A stretch of 32,000 nucleotides of DNA, from assembly GCF_000237865.1 (NCBI RefSeq), contig NC_017459.1:1410001-1442000 (forward strand). The letters are read 5' to 3'. Below are positions 4,621 to 13,656 of the stretch, piece by piece. The translations under genes and the position numbers were made by a program. Within the stretch, counting starts at the first letter, position 1; the number at the start of each line of letters is the position of its first letter. This DNA comes from Haloquadratum walsbyi C23. Lineage in GTDB: Archaea; Halobacteriota; Halobacteria; Halobacteriales; Haloferacaceae. A model generated the notes under the pieces. That model did no database searches, was not told the DNA's origin, and saw only the letters and a list, made by a program, of their open reading frames with translations.

Positions 4621-5016
4621 CTATGGGGCGATGAGCTCATCCGCTTCCGCTCCAACCACTGCCTCAATCTCACCCCCGGTGAGACGCCAACGGTCGTTGG
4701 GACCGGCACACTCCAGTTGACTCACGACCTCGTTCTTGAACTGGGTGTAGTGCGTTAGCGCAAATTCTTCGTCATCTGTGTAGTTGAGTAGGAGCGCGAG
4801 TGCAAGCTGCGCTGGACCACTCCCACCGTATCCCCATTCGAACCCTATGGGGCTGTGGTTCGCCACCTTGAGACTCCGGTGTGGCGTGAGCTGTTCATGA
4901 TTAGGTAGTTTCTCCACGACAGCGCGTCCTCGTTGTCGATAGCCGATGTAGACGACATCGCGGTCAGTTCTTTGGCGTCTCTGCTCGGGCGATTGTGGGT
5001 CGATAATTCTACTCAT
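4621..5016 (-). CDS. DUF6166-like protein
   Basis: The track start 5055 is GTG and lies inside repeat copy B. ATG 5016 gives MSRIIDPQSPEQ.... The block GFEWGYGGSGPAQLALALLL is the signature remembered for DUF6166. Confidence 0.65.
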   Translation of the reverse strand: MSRIIDPQSPEQRRQRTDRDVVYIGYRQRGRAVVEKLPNHEQLTPHRSLKVANHSPIGFEWGYGGSGPAQLALALLLNYTDDEEFALTHYTQFKNEVVSQLECAGPNDRWRLTGGEIEAVVGAEADELIAP

Positions 5017-5045
5017 TGGTCTGATCGAAGGTACTCGTTCGAGCA

Positions 5046-5074
5046 CCCCCCGCACCCCTCAGGGGGCGAAAAAC
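5046..5074 (-). repeat. copy B of the conserved T-run + hairpin intergenic element
   Basis: Minus-strand reading: GTTTTTCGCCCCCTGAGGGGTGCGGGGGG, 58 nt upstream of ATG 5016. Confidence 0.75.
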
Positions 5075-5110: not shown

Positions 5111-5152
5111 ATTAACCAACAAATTCTGTGATTACCGAGTCATGTTGGTTAA
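5111..5152. repeat. inverted repeat ATTAACCAACAAA-N19-TGTTGGTTAA (locus 1)
   Basis: TTAACCAACA at 5113-5122 and TGTTGGTTAA at 5143-5152. The same arms recur at 12548-12621. Confidence 0.8.
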
Positions 5153-5236: not shown

Positions 5237-6934
5237 CTAGTCGTCTACCTGGGGGACTCGCCAGATCGATGCGAGTCGTTCGGCAAGTTCTTGATTCCGT
5301 TCTCGAATCGTCTTTTCCGTCCAATTATCGCACTCCTCAAAATACCCGTTCAGCTCGACGTGGCTTTCCATGAGGAGTTCACGCTTTTCGTCAAATGGCC
5401 GATTCGAGAGCTCTGGATTGTAGCCACTGAGGGTTAGATTGCCAAGGGCGTGAAGCCACTGGTCGTGGATACGTTCCCATTCATCGCCAAGCATCGCTTT
5501 CCACTCGTCGCCCCATTCGTTGTCGTCGATCGTCTGCGGCATGACGTGCTCAATCGTGAGCTCATCATACTGAACCGGCTCTTTGTGTCCGAACTGCTCC
5601 TCAAGTGTTCGAAGAACGAGCCACGTTTTCTTTTTGTCGCGGTTGTACATATCAAATCGGAGGATGTTGTCAAGGAGTTCTGTGTCATCTGGCCATCCTT
5701 GACTTTTCAGATAGGCGAATAGCGAGCCTTTCACGTCGTCGTCTTCGATGGACCGTGCAGCAATCGGGAAGGTTCGGTAGTAGCCCCGCGTGCTTCGGCC
5801 GCAAATGAACCGCCGAAGAACGAAGCTTTCCAGTCCGTGTAGAGTCTCGAGAAGTTCATCTATCGAGAGGTTATCCGAATCCCATCTGTACAGCAGATTC
5901 AACACTAGCTGATGAGCCGTTCCAATTTCGAGATATTGGAGGCGACGCAGCGCGTTGGTAAGCTCTTCGTTTGGTGCCGTTTCCGGTCGCTGAATCCAGA
6001 GATAGAGGTCACCATAGTACGAGAGTTCATCCACGAGTTCTCTGGGTGTCATCTCTGACGTCCGCCGCTTGAACTGATGGTAGATTTCGTTTTTCTGGAC
6101 GTACTCACCGGTTCGCATCATATAGTCACGATAGAACTCCGTGAGATCGACCCCCGAATAGTCATCCGTCTCTTCGAACTTTTGCTCAAACGGCATCCAG
6201 TGTTCATCGTTGAACCGATCTTGCTCGGTCAGAGAGAGCTGCATAAAGACATGGTTCCGGATAAGATCAGACTCTTCAAGCTGAAGCCCACGCTCGTTTA
6301 GAGTCTCGAAGATAGCGTAGGGATTCTCGTCTTCAGAAGTCGTGATCATCACCAACGGAAGCTGTTGGATGATGATTTGCTTGAGCCGATCAAGCGTTTC
6401 AATCTCATCATCACCATTCACTTCCTCTATCTTGCTGTACAGGAAGTCATAGCTCTGGTAGATTGATGTCTCCGCAAGGTTCTCGTCTACGCTTTCCTGC
6501 TCCACGATGGTGAAGAGGGCGTCCCGATCTTCGGCACGTGAGATAACTTTGAACTTCTCGACCCCGTCTTTGAATTCGTCAATGAGATACTTCTTGTTAA
6601 TTTCTTCAGCGAAGCTATTGTGTCGCTCATCGTTTACCTCGGTCGCATAGTCTCGGATAGCACTGAGGAAGAGCGTGAGAGTGATGAGACGTTGCTGTCC
6701 ATCGATAACGAGATATTCTGGCACAGTCCCCGGGCGATGATTCCCGGGCATTACAACGAACGTACCAATGAAGTGTTCTTCAGAAAGCGAGTCGGCCTCC
6801 AAGAGGTTTTGCACGTCGGACCAGAGAGCATCTAATTCATCGGTCCCCCACGAATAGTTCCGTTGGAAGACTGGAATTACGAATTGCTTCTCGCCTGCAA
6901 ACACACTTTGGAGAAATTGATCTTCAGCGTCCAT
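5237..6934 (-). CDS. GmrSD-like type IV restriction endonuclease (DUF262 + DUF1524)
   Basis: 565 aa with an ATG start. N-terminal FVIPVFQRNYSW and IDGQQRLITL match the DUF262/ParB-like NTPase module. C-terminal EHVMPQT...WLHALGNLTLSGYNPELSNRPF matches the DUF1524 His-Me finger nuclease module. Confidence 0.9.
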   Translation of the reverse strand: MDAEDQFLQSVFAGEKQFVIPVFQRNYSWGTDELDALWSDVQNLLEADSLSEEHFIGTFVVMPGNHRPGTVPEYLVIDGQQRLITLTLFLSAIRDYATEVNDERHNSFAEEINKKYLIDEFKDGVEKFKVISRAEDRDALFTIVEQESVDENLAETSIYQSYDFLYSKIEEVNGDDEIETLDRLKQIIIQQLPLVMITTSEDENPYAIFETLNERGLQLEESDLIRNHVFMQLSLTEQDRFNDEHWMPFEQKFEETDDYSGVDLTEFYRDYMMRTGEYVQKNEIYHQFKRRTSEMTPRELVDELSYYGDLYLWIQRPETAPNEELTNALRRLQYLEIGTAHQLVLNLLYRWDSDNLSIDELLETLHGLESFVLRRFICGRSTRGYYRTFPIAARSIEDDDVKGSLFAYLKSQGWPDDTELLDNILRFDMYNRDKKKTWLVLRTLEEQFGHKEPVQYDELTIEHVMPQTIDDNEWGDEWKAMLGDEWERIHDQWLHALGNLTLSGYNPELSNRPFDEKRELLMESHVELNGYFEECDNWTEKTIRERNQELAERLASIWRVPQVDD

Positions 6935-7373: not shown

Positions 7374-7766
7374 TCATTTTCTTCCTTCGAGCCGACCTGA
7401 TTTCTGGAATTCAGCACGCCGCTCAGCGCTCCGCTTCGCCGCGATGTCTCGCGTCCGCTTCTCCCGACCTTCCTGCGTCCCCAGCTCTGCCTGGGCACTG
7501 ATGCGCTCCAACTCAGCCTCTCGCGCCCGAATGCGCTCTTCCTGTTCGAGGGTCGCACCGTAGATCCGCTCGTCACTGGTATCGACCATCCCGTCTGGGT
7601 GGTTCGCATCGACCTTCGCCTGCACCTCCATCTGCACCGTCGCCTGGAACTTCAGCGTCTCATCGACGACCTCGAAGCCGTCTTCGTCGACCGCCGCTTC
7701 GTCCGCCTTTTCGAATGCCTGTTCATCGACCGAAACTACATTATCAAAGACGTTCTTATTTGGCAT
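7374..7766 (-). CDS. hypothetical protein (130 aa), acidic N-terminal half and Arg/Glu-rich helical C-terminus
   Basis: ATG start at 7766. The composition is typical of a real haloarchaeal protein. No family was recognised. Confidence 0.55.
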   Translation of the reverse strand: MPNKNVFDNVVSVDEQAFEKADEAAVDEDGFEVVDETLKFQATVQMEVQAKVDANHPDGMVDTSDERIYGATLEQEERIRAREAELERISAQAELGTQEGREKRTRDIAAKRSAERRAEFQKSGRLEGRK

Positions 7767-8180
7767 CGGAACTCAACCTAGTTCCGAAGGCGCTCACGCG
7801 CCCGACACCGCGGTGCTCCTACATCGCGGTTCTTCGACGACATCGACCGACAGAAGCATTTGCGCGCTCTCGCTCGCGCCTTCGCGAGCGCCCCATGGGG
7901 AGGCCACCCAACCAGCACCGCGCGCCGACCCGCCTGGAGCGAGCGACGCGGAGGGCGGCAGCGGCGAGCGGGGCGGGCCGTAGAGAAACACCGTTCAACC
8001 ACTCTCGACGCTCAGTTACCCAGCCGACATCCTGGCGGACTCAGAAAGGGCGAGGCCGTCTCGGTCGTCCCCCGGCCCCGCAAGCACTGCAGGCACGAGG
8101 AGCGCAGCGGTGGTCGCGGGATGCCGAGCGACCGAGGGCTTTTATCTGTTGTGCCTACGTCCTCGACAGAGCCTGGTCTG

Positions 8181-8230
8181 TGTTGCAAAATGCCGAATTG
8201 ATTTATACATTAGTTCGCTAATATGCAACA
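8181..8230. promoter_or_regulatory. inverted repeat TGTTGCA-N36-TGCAACA flanking a TTTATA box
   Basis: TGTTGCA at 8181-8187, TTTATA at 8202-8207 and TGCAACA at 8224-8230. ATG 8233 lies about 28 nt from the TATA centre, which is leaderless geometry. Confidence 0.4.
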
Positions 8231-8232
8231 GT

Positions 8233-8961
8233 ATGCTCACAGAAGCTGAGGTTCGCGCCCTTACAGCCCTCCACGGTGAGCAGACGGTCTCTGACCTTGC
8301 AACGAATCTCGATCGGAGTCTCAGCTACACGTCAGAACTCGTCGAGCGGCTCGAAACGGCTGGCCTCGTCGAGACACGTCGACAGGGGAAAACAAAGCGG
8401 ATTCGACTGTCGGACGCAAAGGCCCTCGAGTTACTCACGAAACTCACACAACAGTATTCACACATCGACTGGCCGGAGCTGTTGTCAGGGGCTGCCCTCC
8501 GTGTGTGCTACTACCTCGACACCCCGCGGACCCCGACCAAACTCGCACGCCGCGCCGACGTCCACCGAAGTACCGTCCACCGTGCGCTAGCCCCGCTTCA
8601 GCATCGCGGAATCGTCTACCAAACTGACGACGGGGCGTACACACTGAACGATGGCTTCGAACCGCTGAGCGTATTCGCTCGTGAGCTTGCCCATCACGTC
8701 CACCGCCAGACTGTCGAAGCACAGACCGACACGTACTCGATTCTGTGGGAATCGCTTGACGAGTTCCTTGTACAGATGCCGACTGAGATCGACAACGAAC
8801 ACTTCATCCCGACAGGCCCAGACCAGTTCCAGCGATACAGAGCCGGAAGTCGTGAAAGAGAAAGGCGAGCCTGTCGAGCAGTATCCGCCGCCCGGCGAAG
8901 GCTGGTAGTCATCTCAACCTGGGAATATCTGGGGCGAAGCGCCCCCGGTCAGTGTCGGTAA
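8233..8961 (+). CDS. transcriptional regulator with two winged-helix-like modules; C-terminus suspect
   Basis: The track ORF starts at GTG 8110 inside GC-rich non-coding-looking sequence. ATG 8233 gives MLTEAEVRALTALHGEQTVSDLATNLDRSLSYTSELVERLETAGLVE.... A second HTH-like segment is PTKLARRADVHRSTVHRALAPLQHRGIV. The last ~45 aa are Arg-rich and overlap the convergent Bax1 gene. Confidence 0.65.
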   Translation: MLTEAEVRALTALHGEQTVSDLATNLDRSLSYTSELVERLETAGLVETRRQGKTKRIRLSDAKALELLTKLTQQYSHIDWPELLSGAALRVCYYLDTPRTPTKLARRADVHRSTVHRALAPLQHRGIVYQTDDGAYTLNDGFEPLSVFARELAHHVHRQTVEAQTDTYSILWESLDEFLVQMPTEIDNEHFIPTGPDQFQRYRAGSRERERRACRAVSAARRRLVVISTWEYLGRSAPGQCR

Positions 8962-10310
8962 TCAGGGGCGCGTCCGTCGACAGCGTACTCCTCAGCCAAC
9001 TCCACGACATCATAGACGTGAATCCCTGATTTGAACCACAGCACACGGTCATCCATCCCCTCAAAGTCATCCGACGAGCAATCCAATCGCTCAGATACGG
9101 CGACGATGAGATTATCACGGTCGGCGTCTCGTATTTTCGCCAGCTTCTTATCAAGATATTCGGGCGTCCAGAACCCGACGATCTCGAACACTACCCGCCG
9201 TCCATCTGGGTGTTCGATAGCGAAATCGGGAAGCATTACCTCCGCACCCAAGTCCAGCACATCATCCTCTCGGACGAGTTTCCAGTCCGTATTCATTCGC
9301 TCCCACTTCTGAGCAAGCGTTCGTTCGACATCAGAGTCGAACTCGCCTTGAGCCGAGTAGTGCGAAGACAATCCACTGGAGGAGTCAAGCTCAAACGAGA
9401 GTGTCCGACCTGCGGATCCGCTTTCATCGTTGAGAATATCCGCCTCCATTTTCCAGCGATCACACAACGGGAGTGCAGGCAGGAAGTTTGCCATCCGTAT
9501 CCCGTACTTCCGTGATTTCGAGAAGAGAGACGCTGCTCCGTCTAGAATCGCCTCATACCCGTCAGCAACGTCTGTACTGGGGACACGATTACCGTCGCTA
9601 TCGATTGGATAGATACGGTGCATCAAGCCGAATAGCTTGACATAGCTAAAAACAGTCGCAAATGAGTCCCAAACCCGTATCCGCATCTCGGTTGCATCGT
9701 AGAGTTCCGCCTGTGCCAGAGCCAGATTGTATCGCGTGAGAAGCCAGTCAACTGTGATGGTATCCTCAGCGTAGGACTCCTCACTATCACCCGTGAGTCG
9801 CGTTGTTGTTGATGACTCATCAGCCCCCTCGTATTTATCGGAAACACGGTGTCCAAAGCGGACGAGTCGCTTGTTCTCCTCCAAGTCCGCATACATCCCC
9901 CGATAGCACTCTTCAAGCGAGATACCCAGTCGATCAGCAACGGTACTGTATATCCACACGGATTGGGTATCCTCTCCCAACGTTGGTTGACGGACAATCG
10001 GGTGATTCCTGTTCGCAACTTCGAAAAGCTCCTGTCGAATCTCCCGTGAGTCAACTGGAGCAACCGTCTCAAACTCACATTCATCTTTCAGTAGCTTCGC
10101 CAGCCCTTGGACGATTTTGTAGTCGGTATCCGAAACCGTGAGCTGGTCAATTGTGTCTTCCAACTCTCCTTTCGATTCGCCGAGATGCTCCTCAAAAATC
10201 TGGATGAGCTCCGCCGCTGTCTCTCGATACTGTTGCTCGTCAGTATCGATGAGCAACGGAGTAATGCTATTCTCGTCCGTGCGTGAGCGTGCAAGGTCAG
10301 CTGTTAGCAT
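8949..10310 (-). CDS. bax1: Bax1-like nuclease (DUF790 family), partner of XPB
   Basis: 453 aa with an ATG start. It begins 14 nt before the stop of the upstream XPB gene. Size, N-terminus (MLTADLARSR...ITPLLID) and position downstream of XPB match the archaeal XPB-Bax1 operon. The family call is from memory and was not searched. Confidence 0.75.
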   Translation of the reverse strand: MLTADLARSRTDENSITPLLIDTDEQQYRETAAELIQIFEEHLGESKGELEDTIDQLTVSDTDYKIVQGLAKLLKDECEFETVAPVDSREIRQELFEVANRNHPIVRQPTLGEDTQSVWIYSTVADRLGISLEECYRGMYADLEENKRLVRFGHRVSDKYEGADESSTTTRLTGDSEESYAEDTITVDWLLTRYNLALAQAELYDATEMRIRVWDSFATVFSYVKLFGLMHRIYPIDSDGNRVPSTDVADGYEAILDGAASLFSKSRKYGIRMANFLPALPLCDRWKMEADILNDESGSAGRTLSFELDSSSGLSSHYSAQGEFDSDVERTLAQKWERMNTDWKLVREDDVLDLGAEVMLPDFAIEHPDGRRVVFEIVGFWTPEYLDKKLAKIRDADRDNLIVAVSERLDCSSDDFEGMDDRVLWFKSGIHVYDVVELAEEYAVDGRAPDYRH

Positions 10311-11706
10311 CTGAAGTCACCCCCTGCCGACGTTGTTCGGAAACGTAGGTCTCCATTGTGTCTTCGGCGATGATCTCGTAGAGACGAGCGGGTTGTCGGT
10401 CGTCTGTTGGACGGAGAATTCGCCCTAATCGTTGTGCATACTGGCGTTTCGACGCACTCCCTGAGAGAATAATCCCAACGTTCGCCGCAGGCACGTCGAT
10501 TCCCTCATCAAGCACCTGTGAGGTAGCGAGCATCGAGTACTCCCCTGTCCGAAACCGCTCCAGAATTTCTGTTCGTTCGTCAGTCTCAGTCTGGTGTGTG
10601 ATACACGGGACGACGAACTCTTGAGAGATGTCGTATGCGAACTCGTTGTTGGCGGTGAAAATAATAGTGCGGTCGTCATAATGTCGTTTCAGGAGGGTAT
10701 CGAGCGTGTCAAGTTTCTTTTCAGCAGTACGAGCGATGGTTTCCGCTCGTTGCTTGGCGATGAGAGCCCGTCTCCCCTGTGGGTCATACGAAGTCCGCTT
10801 GAGGAACTCAGCATACCCGTTTTCTTTCCAGAGGTCAAAATCGTGGCTGTCAACATAGTCACGGTAAATCCCGTATTCTTCATCGTATTGTTCCCGTTCG
10901 TCTCCTGTTAACTCTACCCCGAGATGGATGGTTTCGTACTCGCTGAGGTACTCGCCAGCAAGTTCGTTAACCTCCTCTCGGTAGACGACCGTGCCCAGAA
11001 GCTCCTTCAATGTCTTGTGTTTGCCGTCAGCACGCTCATAGGTGGCTGTGAGTCCGAGTCGATACGGGGAGATCGTCATTTCAGGAATCTGCTGGTAGGT
11101 TGGAGCTGGCAGATGGTGTACTTCGTCGACAACAAGAAGTCCAAACTTGTCGCCGTATTCGTTGATGTAGCGGTAGGCGGAGTCATAGGTCGTAACCGTG
11201 ATGTTTGTGATATTGTGACTTCCGCCACCAAGAACACCGACCCCATCAGGGAGTTGCTCGCTGAACGCGTTAGTGAGCGTCGCGTGCCATTGGTTCATCA
11301 AGTCGATCGTCGGAACGACGACCAGCGTACTCACACCTGCATCAGCAATCGCTTGGACAGCAAGGAACGTCTTTCCGCTTCCAGTCGGGAGAACAACGCT
11401 TCCCTGGCGGTCGTTGTCCTGCCACGCCGAAAGAGCCTCCTGCTGATAATCTCGCGGTTCGATAGCAACCGAGGGAGTGAAGTGAAACTCGGAGTACGCA
11501 CGGGCATCATCTTCGAACTCAGCTATGGTCGCTGTGGATTGGGTGAGAGTGGCTTGTTCGTCGGGGTCAGCCAGCCAATCACAGATATCGCGATAGTGTT
11601 GTGCCCGTGCCCGATACTCTTCAACACGGTCATCCCACTCAGCATATGGCACAGTATCAGGGGCGTCTTCAAGAAGAAGCGTGCCGTCATCAAAGGCGAG
11701 ACGCAT
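10297..11706 (-). CDS. xpb: XPB/Rad25-type superfamily 2 DNA helicase
   Basis: 469 aa. N-terminal MRLAFDDGTLLLED, Walker A LPTGSGKT, motif II DEVHH, LGLTATYERADG (RED-like motif position of XPB), TSQVLDEGIDVP, and motif VI QRLGRILR. Confidence 0.9.
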   Translation of the reverse strand: MRLAFDDGTLLLEDAPDTVPYAEWDDRVEEYRARAQHYRDICDWLADPDEQATLTQSTATIAEFEDDARAYSEFHFTPSVAIEPRDYQQEALSAWQDNDRQGSVVLPTGSGKTFLAVQAIADAGVSTLVVVPTIDLMNQWHATLTNAFSEQLPDGVGVLGGGSHNITNITVTTYDSAYRYINEYGDKFGLLVVDEVHHLPAPTYQQIPEMTISPYRLGLTATYERADGKHKTLKELLGTVVYREEVNELAGEYLSEYETIHLGVELTGDEREQYDEEYGIYRDYVDSHDFDLWKENGYAEFLKRTSYDPQGRRALIAKQRAETIARTAEKKLDTLDTLLKRHYDDRTIIFTANNEFAYDISQEFVVPCITHQTETDERTEILERFRTGEYSMLATSQVLDEGIDVPAANVGIILSGSASKRQYAQRLGRILRPTDDRQPARLYEIIAEDTMETYVSEQRRQGVTSDANS

Positions 11707-11770
11707 TCAACCCTGTCTATGCGGGTAGGATACTTGTCTGTGCTGGAGCAAACACCTCATGAGGGACGCA

Positions 11771-12142
11771 CTACGTCGAGAGGTCATCAGCCATTGAGCG
11801 AAGTTCACTCTTGCTCGGTTGACTTCCGATCTCGACGGTCTCATCCCCATCCCCATCCCCAGCCCAGAACCGAAACTGCTGATGATCAACATCGAAATGA
11901 AGTCCACAGGAGATATCGGGATCTGCCTGCTCGTATGCGGATTTATTCACAGCCTCCCCCGCTTGAAGGGTTTCAAGAAGATACTCGGCGACGTGGGGAC
12001 GTTGCTTCATCGCCAAGATGTGGTCGGTTGCGACGTGTTTGAGTACTTCCTCACCCGTGCTGTATCTATTGCCGACAAGATAGAACTCACCGCTGAAATT
12101 GTATGATTCGACTCGGATGCTGAGCGAATATGTATTGCTCAT
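11771..12142 (-). CDS. hypothetical protein (123 aa) at the head of the XPB-Bax1 transcription unit
   Basis: ATG start, 64-nt gap to XPB, same strand. No family was recognised. Confidence 0.55.
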   Translation of the reverse strand: MSNTYSLSIRVESYNFSGEFYLVGNRYSTGEEVLKHVATDHILAMKQRPHVAEYLLETLQAGEAVNKSAYEQADPDISCGLHFDVDHQQFRFWAGDGDGDETVEIGSQPSKSELRSMADDLST

Positions 12143-12547: not shown

Positions 12548-12621
12548 ATTAACCAACAAACTGGTCCGTCTGTTGCTATCTGTTGGTTAATCATGGTGAG
12601 CTGTTGGTTAATCATGGTGAG
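12548..12621. repeat. inverted repeat ATTAACCAACAAA ... TGTTGGTTAA (locus 2) with a perfect 21-bp tandem duplication
   Basis: ATTAACCAACAAA at 12548-12560. CTGTTGGTTAATCATGGTGAG at 12580-12600 is repeated exactly at 12601-12621. A degenerate CTGTTGCTATC lies at 12570-12580. Confidence 0.85.
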
Positions 12622-12672: not shown

Positions 12673-13656
12673 ATGCCATTTCGAGTGACGTGGAGCAATC
12701 TCCTCGACAACGTGGAGGAACTTCCAGCAGACGCCACACTCCTTACTCCGGTTTCTCAGAAGCCGTTTCAGATTACCGACGTCCAGCAACATCGAATGCT
12801 GATCGAGTATCGGACCGGCAGTGAGACTGTGCCGCTCCAGCGAGAGCAATTCGAGACGTTGTTCCAGCGCGTTGACGATGCGGCTGGAGCGTTCGATCTC
12901 GATCGCCTCCCACCTGGAGCTGAACCGTATGCAACCGTCGCGAGTCTTCATCCGCGATTCACGATCGACGACCGGGACGGCACGCTCTCCAAAAGCGAGA
13001 CGCCAACAGCGTCGCCACTTGTCGATGCACACACGGTCGAACACAACGATACCTCACGAGAAGAGCCCGATATCTCGGTGTACGCAGACTCACTTCTGTT
13101 GATCGACGCGCTCGAGCAGCACGATGTAACGTCACTCACCGACCTGGAGATGCCGACGCTTGTGAACCTCTACACGCTGCTGTCAGACGTCCAGCGCAAC
13201 GCCAACGACCTTCGACAAGACGTTCGTGGCGTCTTGCTCGACCGTCTCCACCACGATCAGCCTGTCAGCGGACAGTACGGCTCCGTCCAACGGACTGCCC
13301 GTAAAAATCGGACACTCAAAGATGATGAGACGGTTCTTGAGCGATTGGAGGCGCAAGGAATTGCCCCTGAGCGTATCATGAGCATCGATGCAAGCAAAGT
13401 TGATGACGCATTGGAAGTGACAGCACTCTCTGAATCCGATGTGTACGATATCGAGGAGAGCGAGTATGTACGGAAGGCAGATGTCGACGAAGAAATGAAA
13501 CAAACTCGTCTTCAAGGGCTCAAAGACCAGTTAGCTGGTGCCGACGAAGACACAACCGAGCTCCAAGCCGAAATCGAAGAGTTAGAGCAGCGTATTACCG
13601 AGCTCACCAGTTTTGACTCCGGAACCTCCTATCATACTCGCTCAACTGGTGGGTAG
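12673..13656 (+). CDS. hypothetical protein (327 aa) with C-terminal coiled coil
   Basis: ATG 12673 lies about 27 nt downstream of the T-run at 12644-12648. The composition is acidic. The C-terminal EMKQTRLQGLKDQLAGADEDTTELQAEIEELEQRITEL is coiled-coil-like. No family was recognised. Confidence 0.7.
   Translation: MPFRVTWSNLLDNVEELPADATLLTPVSQKPFQITDVQQHRMLIEYRTGSETVPLQREQFETLFQRVDDAAGAFDLDRLPPGAEPYATVASLHPRFTIDDRDGTLSKSETPTASPLVDAHTVEHNDTSREEPDISVYADSLLLIDALEQHDVTSLTDLEMPTLVNLYTLLSDVQRNANDLRQDVRGVLLDRLHHDQPVSGQYGSVQRTARKNRTLKDDETVLERLEAQGIAPERIMSIDASKVDDALEVTALSESDVYDIEESEYVRKADVDEEMKQTRLQGLKDQLAGADEDTTELQAEIEELEQRITELTSFDSGTSYHTRSTGG

Follow-up and report, generated by a model that had tools for sequence, protein, structure and literature searches.

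The archaeon Haloquadratum walsbyi C23 has replicons of 3,148,033, 100,258, 6,129 and 6,056 bp with a GC content of 47.8%, and the stretch of DNA analysed here (the window; 32,000 nucleotides, C1:1,410,001-1,442,000) lies within its published hypervariable island GI2/DV6 (nt 1,268,551-1,472,326). This island is described as having raised G+C, numerous indels, insertion sequence (IS) elements and pseudogenes, and it contains a CRISPR-Cas locus (PMC3119063). A first-pass annotation, made from the letters of the window alone, had called the surroundings IS-littered, which is true of the island as published but not of the annotated open reading frames (ORFs) of the window. It had also pointed out three minus-strand ORFs, encoding an XPB-type helicase, a Bax1-like nuclease and an unrecognised protein of 123 amino acids (orf123), and all three are present, with a 14-nt overlap between the XPB and Bax1 genes. 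We show here that the helicase and nuclease genes form an intact XPB(Rad25)-Bax1 unit of a distinct plasmid-type clade that includes the copies on pHV4 and pNRC100/200. The unit and its immediate surroundings comprise the following features.

8949-10310, minus strand: Bax1 (DUF790) structure-specific nuclease of the plasmid-type clade, 453 aa (Pfam DUF790)
10297-11706, minus strand: XPB/Rad25 superfamily 2 (SF2) helicase-translocase, 469 aa (Pfam XPB_DRD, ResIII, ERCC3_RAD25_C and Helicase_C)
11707-11770, minus strand: 64-nt spacer with a conserved promoter-like block (alignment of related loci)
11771-12142, minus strand: orf123, an acidic protein of 123 aa, plasmid-backbone gene (homologues in Halobacteria genomes)

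The window XPB was aligned end to end with XPB from A. fulgidus (6p66_A/2fwr_A; 354 bits, residues 4-462), and its N-terminal damage-recognition domain (DRD) was recognised by the Pfam model PF18458 XPB_DRD with 53.7 bits (cut-off 26) at residues 3-46. The hallmark motifs that had been listed in the first-pass annotation were all located, PTGSGKT at 107, DEVHH at 194, TATYERADG at 220 and QRLGRILR at 425. The RED motif of this protein reads R-A-D (TATYERADG) and not R-E-D. The glutamate of this motif is replaced in 34/34 window-type XPBs and in 12/12 haloarchaeal XPBs of the core type described below, where the motif reads RPD, and this replacement is a haloarchaeal lineage trait and no sign against XPB membership. 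Loss of the RED motif was also considered as a marker of the clade and was rejected, as the glutamate is equally absent from the 12 core proteins.

The window Bax1 is full length, matching Pfam DUF790 (PF05626) with 445 bits over protein residues 1-438 and model positions 1-386/387, and both checks by hidden Markov model proposed earlier, one for DUF790 and one for the XPB domains, gave matches in Pfam. Bax1 also matches the solved Bax1 structures 6p4w, 6p4f and 6p66, and its three acidic nuclease motifs are intact (EFDSDVE at 323, LPDF at 360 and FEIVGFW at 375) and align with the active-site residues E275/D305/E318 of AfBax1 (named in PMC7293015). The two genes are adjacent on the same strand, overlapping at 10297-10310, and the same adjacent, co-oriented arrangement is found in related loci where both genes were called. 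The archaeal XPB-Bax1 pairs of A. fulgidus and S. tokodaii (6p66, 6p4f, 6p4w, 6p4o) share with the window pair the two-gene order, full-length alignments, the domain order (a DRD-HD1-ThM-HD2 helicase and a DUF790 nuclease), helicase motifs I, II and VI and the three acidic nuclease motifs. In contrast to those pairs, the window pair has RAD in place of RED, belongs to a type carried on plasmids and islands instead of at a core chromosomal site, and scores under the narrow NCBIfam equivalog cut-offs. The window locus belongs to a known family, of which it is a normal though mobile representative.

When the window Bax1 was used as a query against 301 Halobacteria genomes, the identities obtained were bimodal, with none between 43% and 65%. 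Window-type Bax1 (65-91% identity) occurs in about 45 of these genomes, often on small contigs and in some genomes in more than one copy, and within the group of its own genus it is patchy (3/7). Of the 287 genomes with any match, most had as their best one a protein of the class with 35-43% identity, which was mostly located on contig 1 at megabase coordinates. Window-type XPB is encoded on 29 sequenced haloarchaeal plasmids, with 81.5% identity for the Halobacterium pNRC100/pNRC200 and R1 plasmids and 78% for pHV4 of H. volcanii, and its clade spans many genera at 74-99% identity. Median pairwise identities amount to 82% (XPB) and 75% (Bax1) for the window type and to 64% and 65%, respectively, for the core type. 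The bimodal survey, the plasmid carriage and the uniformity between genera indicate a plasmid-associated, accessory clade that spreads horizontally. No Bax1 relative was detected in phage records or in a close-relative scan of IMG/VR.

A second XPB-Bax1 pair is encoded in C23 at C1:1,978,718-1,981,556 (1.98 Mb), in the order XPB-Bax1...Sun methylase...grpE-dnaK-dnaJ. In a control set of 20 loci of the common haloarchaeal Bax1 type, taken from main chromosomes of other genera, DnaK/GrpE was nearby in 18 and a Sun-family methylase in 14, and this shared synteny identifies the pair at 1.98 Mb as the core positional orthologue. The core pair agrees with the window pair in family and gene order, but the two are only 47% (XPB) and about 29-35% (Bax1) identical, and the core type is near-universal and chromosomally syntenic. 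The opinion expressed earlier that the window copy is not the housekeeping one is therefore upheld, as a syntenic core pair resides elsewhere and the window copy is of an accessory type that has a patchy distribution and has spread by horizontal transfer. The rad25-DUF790 pairs of H. volcanii pHV4 and Halobacterium pNRC100/200 belong to the same clade as the window pair and have the same neighbours (CcbP-like, orf327-like, PRiA4-like, ParA and PadR), whereas the C23 pair is chromosomal, is led by orf123 and not by CcbP, and stands apart from replication and partition genes.

Some further observations concern the other XPB-like genes of C23. The core C23 Bax1 is unusually divergent, with 31-34% identity to core Bax1 of the same genus and its nearest relative in the sample at 52%, and the core C23 XPB was the only haloarchaeal XPB examined with a canonical RED motif; the core pair could represent an in-place replacement by a foreign allele. 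A third XPB-like helicase of C23 (C1:1837745-1840503; about 30-32% identity) has an open frame of 703 aa, lacks a Bax1 partner and adjoins a TBP gene sharing 82% identity with the plasmid-type TBP family.

The DNA around the unit contains the following additional features.

5112-5152, no strand: palindrome TTAACCAACA-N21-TGTTGGTTAA, second copy, upstream of the DUF6166 gene (4621-5055)
5237-6934, minus strand: GmrSD-family type IV restriction enzyme (Pfam GmrSD_N and GmrSD_C; PADLOC Orf5, 670 bits, and HEC-06)
7374-8839, no strand: OB-fold DNA-binding and ArsR/winged helix-turn-helix (wHTH) module, unrelated to the cassette and abutting it (Pfam HTH matches)
8819-8905, plus strand: PRiA4_ORF3-like gene remnant, last 29 codons (tblastn, 79% identity, E 5e-12)
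12549-12621, no strand: palindrome TTAACCAACA-N22-TGTTGGTTAA with a 21-nt tandem duplication, between the divergent genes orf123 and orf327
12673-13656, plus strand: orf327, conserved plasmid-backbone protein, as a rule the divergent partner of orf123 (phrog_35116)

The DNA common to the nine closest loci covers only positions 8977 to about 11750 (Bax1-XPB) or, with orf123, to about 12150, and nothing further to the left. An intact PRiA4-like gene is convergent to Bax1 in five related loci (L059, L060, L062, L085 and L089) and in pNRC100, and the PRiA4_ORF3-like remnant at 8819-8905 marks the left edge of the cassette. This remnant is in another frame within the 3' end of the wHTH ORF 8110-8961, whose basic, aberrant C-terminus is explained by a recombination junction at about 8830. 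On the other side of the junction, the OB-fold/ArsR module has 87-88% nucleotide identity to plasmids of Natrinema, Halorussus, Natronosalvus and Halobacterium, with homology stopping at about 8839, and an 8-kb query that included this module matched 146 plasmid records. Farther out, the left flank of the window contains genes typical for haloarchaeal plasmids (DUF7437, DUF7342, HVO_A0114 and DUF6166) and the right flank a Ni/Co/Zn homeostasis cluster and a MazF toxin. Together with the clade analysis, these data show that the unit came by horizontal transfer, with the backbone genes orf123, orf327 and the PRiA4-like remnant, into GI2/DV6.

In order to define recurrent neighbours, genes were called in 46 related loci and clustered, and the clusters were annotated. 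Orc1/Cdc6 was found 20 times, the orf327 family 17 times, ParA nine times and TRAM seven times; PRiA4_ORF3-like proteins (8+5) and SWIM-finger proteins (5+6+6) were also recurrent, and DUF7509, TBP and PadR were found in smaller numbers. A CcbP-like protein of 120 aa was present in 15 of the 46 loci, frequently directly upstream of XPB. The same neighbour genes appear in the deposited annotation of 11 plasmids (pHV4, pNRC100 and nine others). Neither Orc1/Cdc6 nor ParA was found near the C23 cassette, the nearest Orc1/Cdc6 being located at 2.38 Mb, and the C23 cassette is a detached backbone fragment. In Halobellus salinus, which has the closest relative (locus L117, 10459-11750), XPB has a frameshift near residue 264 and is interrupted near residue 363 by a 1.29-kb insertion with a gene for a putative secreted protein rich in repeats, and in this organism the cassette is decaying. 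XPB is truncated in Halorubrum yunnanense as well.

The first-pass annotation had placed orf123 as an extra leading gene in an operon with XPB-Bax1. It is a real, conserved gene, but not an obligate operon member, as it also occurs with orf327/PRiA4 and no XPB. Searches with orf123 against Pfam, NCBIfam, PADLOC and PHROGs gave no match, and the structure prediction suggested earlier was carried out with AlphaFold2 on 38 sequences but gave a mean predicted local distance difference test score (pLDDT) of 50.8, too poor for a fold search, and the model was not used. Members of the orf123 family, with 119-123 aa, were detected in 24 of the 301 Halobacteria genomes. In nine of the 14 loci with a close homologue (68-86% identity), this gene precedes window-type XPB by 62-73 nt, and four of the close loci are without XPB. 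Distant homologues (about 41%) lack an XPB gene in their surroundings of about 1.5 kb, with one wider locus carrying window-type XPB about 5.5 kb away, and they form a conserved module PRiA4-like <- orf327 <-> orf123 near ParA, Orc1 and SWIM genes. In the window, orf327 is divergent from orf123, and next to orf123 homologues elsewhere it is found at about 60% identity; orf123 belongs primarily with orf327. The orf327 protein matches phrog_35116 (function unknown) over its full length with 435 bits, which means that its family is also recorded in a virus/provirus data set.

A TTTATAA box is located about 28-34 nt upstream of the orf123 ATG. A second block, CCAGCA-N2-GACAAGTAT, occupies positions -40 to -24 relative to the XPB ATG, is nearly invariant in nine loci and is also present before XPB where the upstream gene is not orf123, while other sub-lineages have a conserved box of their own at the same position. 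As this XPB-proximal box is conserved irrespective of the upstream gene, XPB-Bax1 most likely has its own predicted promoter, and orf123 would be a backbone neighbour and not a subunit. A true three-gene operon, in which orf123 would be co-transcribed and encode a regulatory or adaptor subunit in this sub-lineage, would be in line with the DNA shared up to about 12150 in several genera, the constant spacing in the nine close loci and the canonical TATA box of orf123 at leaderless-mRNA distance. However, most window-type pairs are without orf123 and have CcbP-like or other genes upstream instead, the family is also found beside orf327/PRiA4 in the absence of XPB-Bax1, four close loci are without XPB, and the pre-XPB box does not depend on orf123. 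We therefore consider such an operon very doubtful. As a separate observation, a PRiA4-orf327-orf123 module at haloarchaeal-level identities was encountered on a 561-kb contig (L168) labelled as an uncultured Bacteroidetes metagenome-assembled genome (MAG), which is probably a mis-binned or mislabelled haloarchaeal contig.

The sequence TTAACCAACA is present in five copies in the window (0 expected), and it forms the palindromes TTAACCAACA-N21/22-TGTTGGTTAA at 5112-5152 and 12549-12590, the latter followed by an exact 21-nt tandem duplication. Loci L080 and L087 have the orthologous site of the 12549 palindrome upstream of orf327, with a spacer similar to that in the window, and a third full copy of the palindrome is located elsewhere in C23 (C1:2448931). 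In its general form, AACCAACA-N21-23-TGTTGGTT, the element was found in 30 copies in 47 window-type loci, 28 of them intergenic, with up to five copies per locus and in many genera (loci L064-L087). Copies are found, for example, ahead of orf327 and of CcbP-XPB, at 69 nt before XPB, at about 105 nt downstream of Bax1 and between other backbone genes. The palindrome is a recurrent cis-element of the plasmid family and, given its fixed spacing and variable spacer sequence, it is probably a protein-binding site. The repeats had earlier been taken to delimit a block around the pair; in fact, they recur in many intergenic regions of the plasmid family and do not coincide with GmrSD-XPB borders. The possibilities that they are ends of a mobile block or integron attC-like sites were rejected on account of the many intergenic positions per plasmid and a length of only 37-42 nt. 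No integron integrase was identified among the annotated ORFs.

The main proposal of the first-pass annotation had been that the context of the pair, next to a GmrSD enzyme and toxin-antitoxin (TA) modules, fits a defence system. The proximity to GmrSD is real (2 kb from Bax1, with the OB-fold/ArsR module between them), and MazF lies about 8.5 kb to the right. Such a context is not conserved, as the recurrent neighbours in the 46 related loci are plasmid replication, partition and backbone genes. GmrSD occurs in none of the related loci, so that its adjacency is unique to C23, and it is a neighbour and not a part of the cassette. Among the models of PADLOC, the window XPB matched only those with generic SF2 cores (PbeA, mREase_IV, Cas3 and DpdE), and Bax1 had no model match at all (PADLOC-DB v2). 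The best comparison is with PbeA of the DndCDEA-PbeABCD system (PMC6459918), which has a ResIII plus Helicase_C SF2 core like that of the window XPB (195 bits, model positions 240-635). However, PbeA is a PLD-ResIII-helicase fusion (PMC6459918), while the window XPB has a DRD and no PLD domain in Pfam, and the partner proteins are PbeBCD in the Dnd-Pbe system and Bax1 in the window. A combination of the PADLOC hits 'Orf5' (GmrSD) and 'PbeA' into one system was rejected, as there is no Orf5 in the Pbe paper (PMC6459918) and the PLD domain is absent here. When 145 representative neighbour proteins (one batch of three) were scanned by PADLOC with pseudo-alignment, which allows family tallies only, matches were sporadic, with two or three members per family (SNF2/DrmD/DrmA-like, Lhr/BrxH-like and TnpB). 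In the literature searched, no defence role is assigned to XPB-Bax1 or DUF790.

In a defence or inter-element conflict module, as envisaged in the first-pass annotation, the plasmid-type XPB-Bax1 would detect and cleave the DNA of invading viruses or competing plasmids. It would be a helicase-nuclease effector similar to Cas3, type III Res or Hachiman, and orf123 or the CcbP-like protein encoded ahead of XPB might be its sensor or regulator. The pair is accessory, patchy, horizontally transferred and at times multi-copy, the C23 copy lies close to GmrSD in an island that also contains CRISPR-Cas (PMC3119063), and single relatives adjoin a restriction endonuclease, a DNA methyltransferase, or TIR/DUF4231 and the BREX gene PglX. 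The helicase core resembles that of PbeA from an archaeal antiviral system, and a repair role of extra copies is unexplained in an organism with UvrABC. On the other hand, no defence gene recurs beside the pair, its partners being replication, partition and backbone genes, and domain architecture and catalytic motifs are the same as in the repair-type enzyme. The lack of a PADLOC match for Bax1, the DRD in place of the PLD domain, the sporadic neighbour matches, the restriction of GmrSD adjacency to C23 and the silence of the literature point in the same direction. A defence role for the window pair finds no specific support in these data, and we judge a dedicated defence module to be unlikely. 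A related and more speculative idea, which we hold to be quite improbable, is that this widespread haloarchaeal plasmid family might have an undescribed function in inter-replicon conflict or exclusion, with the plasmid-type pair as its effector. The pair would then be co-regulated with orf327, CcbP-like, PRiA4-like and Orc1 genes via the shared palindrome AACCAACA-N21-23-TGTTGGTT and would cut branched intermediates of competing plasmids or viruses.

With regard to mechanism, XPB and Bax1 are known to form a 1:1 complex that acts on bubbles and forks in DNA, with XPB as the opening enzyme and the nuclease domain of Bax1 making its cut near the junction (PMC7293015, PMC7672443). Judging from this family biochemistry, the window XPB would bind Bax1 in a 1:1 ratio and, using ATP, might open the DNA of a bubble or fork or translocate along it, positioning the nuclease domain of Bax1 such that one strand would be cut near the junction of single- and double-stranded DNA. 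The genomic context suggests that the pair may serve the replicon that carries it, its likely roles being recombination or gene conversion between replicon copies, or, close to Orc1/Cdc6 origins, the processing of replication intermediates that have stalled or are branched. In H. volcanii, rad25a (HVO_A0441, on pHV4) is poorly expressed and dispensable for growth, and the quadruple rad25 mutant grows normally, but when rad25a is deleted, survival in a gene-conversion assay falls to about 12%, with no compensation by the other paralogues (PMC11276520). The replication origin oriC2 of H. volcanii is flanked by orc5 and a Rad25/XPB helicase gene (PMC1868953), and where archaeal extrachromosomal elements carry repair-type helicases, these have been interpreted as serving the maintenance of the element's own genome (PMC13444090). 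The rad25a genetics, the location of oriC2 and the precedent from extrachromosomal elements favour a role in recombination of the replicon or in handling its replication intermediates. Also on the side of this explanation are the complete dependence of ultraviolet dark repair in Halobacterium on uvrABC (PMC1590041), with UvrA and UvrB encoded in C23, and the promoter-like box of its own that precedes XPB. On balance, and with moderate confidence, we consider a plasmid-type XPB-Bax1 unit serving its replicon, and not a dedicated anti-virus or anti-plasmid system, to be the best explanation overall.

Several points weigh against this explanation. The window-type XPB of pHV4 is presumably rad25a (HVO_A0441), an assignment by elimination, as it is the sole XPB match on pHV4. 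In C23 the cassette is apart from Orc1/Cdc6 and ParA, so that the pair could not act here in the maintenance of a plasmid. A gene that is patchy and horizontally transferred could equally well be a defence gene, and about 5 of the 11 plasmid loci with annotation have a restriction-modification (RM), TA, TIR or BREX gene no farther away than 8-10 kb, a proportion without a background rate for plasmid DNA; the defence or TA genes in these loci are of a different kind each time. Finally, the frameshifted and interrupted XPB of Halobellus salinus suggests that in chromosomes the cassette may be a decaying passenger.

The last point leads to the possibility that the window pair is a redundant repair paralogue, a second XPB-Bax1 derived from a plasmid fragment that would serve at most as back-up for bulky or cross-link repair, would do nothing specific for its element and would be heading for loss. 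Its architecture and motifs are as in the characterised repair enzymes, no replication module is attached to it in C23, the flanking DNA is pieced together from truncated modules, with the PRiA4 remnant and a junction at about 8830, in a pseudogene-rich island (PMC3119063), and defective XPB genes are on record in Halobellus salinus and Halorubrum yunnanense. In contrast, both C23 genes are intact and keep all catalytic motifs, conservation of XPB at 74-99% across many genera and the 29 plasmids indicates purifying selection, and deletion of the probable H. volcanii orthologue causes a distinct phenotype that is not covered by other paralogues (PMC11276520). A passenger on its way to loss is only a minor possibility in our judgement, and a unit serving its replicon is preferred.

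New in this work is the separation of a mobile plasmid-type clade, which includes the presumed Rad25a of pHV4 and the pNRC100 copy, from the dnaK-linked core chromosomal pair. Among the archaea that use UvrABC, haloarchaea have up to four Rad25 paralogues, and the split into clades offers a sound starting point for the genetics of individual paralogues in tractable hosts. The locus also teaches caution, as adjacency to a restriction enzyme in one genome is poor evidence of defence. Outside the haloarchaea, XPB homologues with 41-45% identity were noticed on 12 Deinococcus plasmids, and Bax1 homologues with 34-36% identity in MAGs of Pyrinomonadaceae (Acidobacteria).

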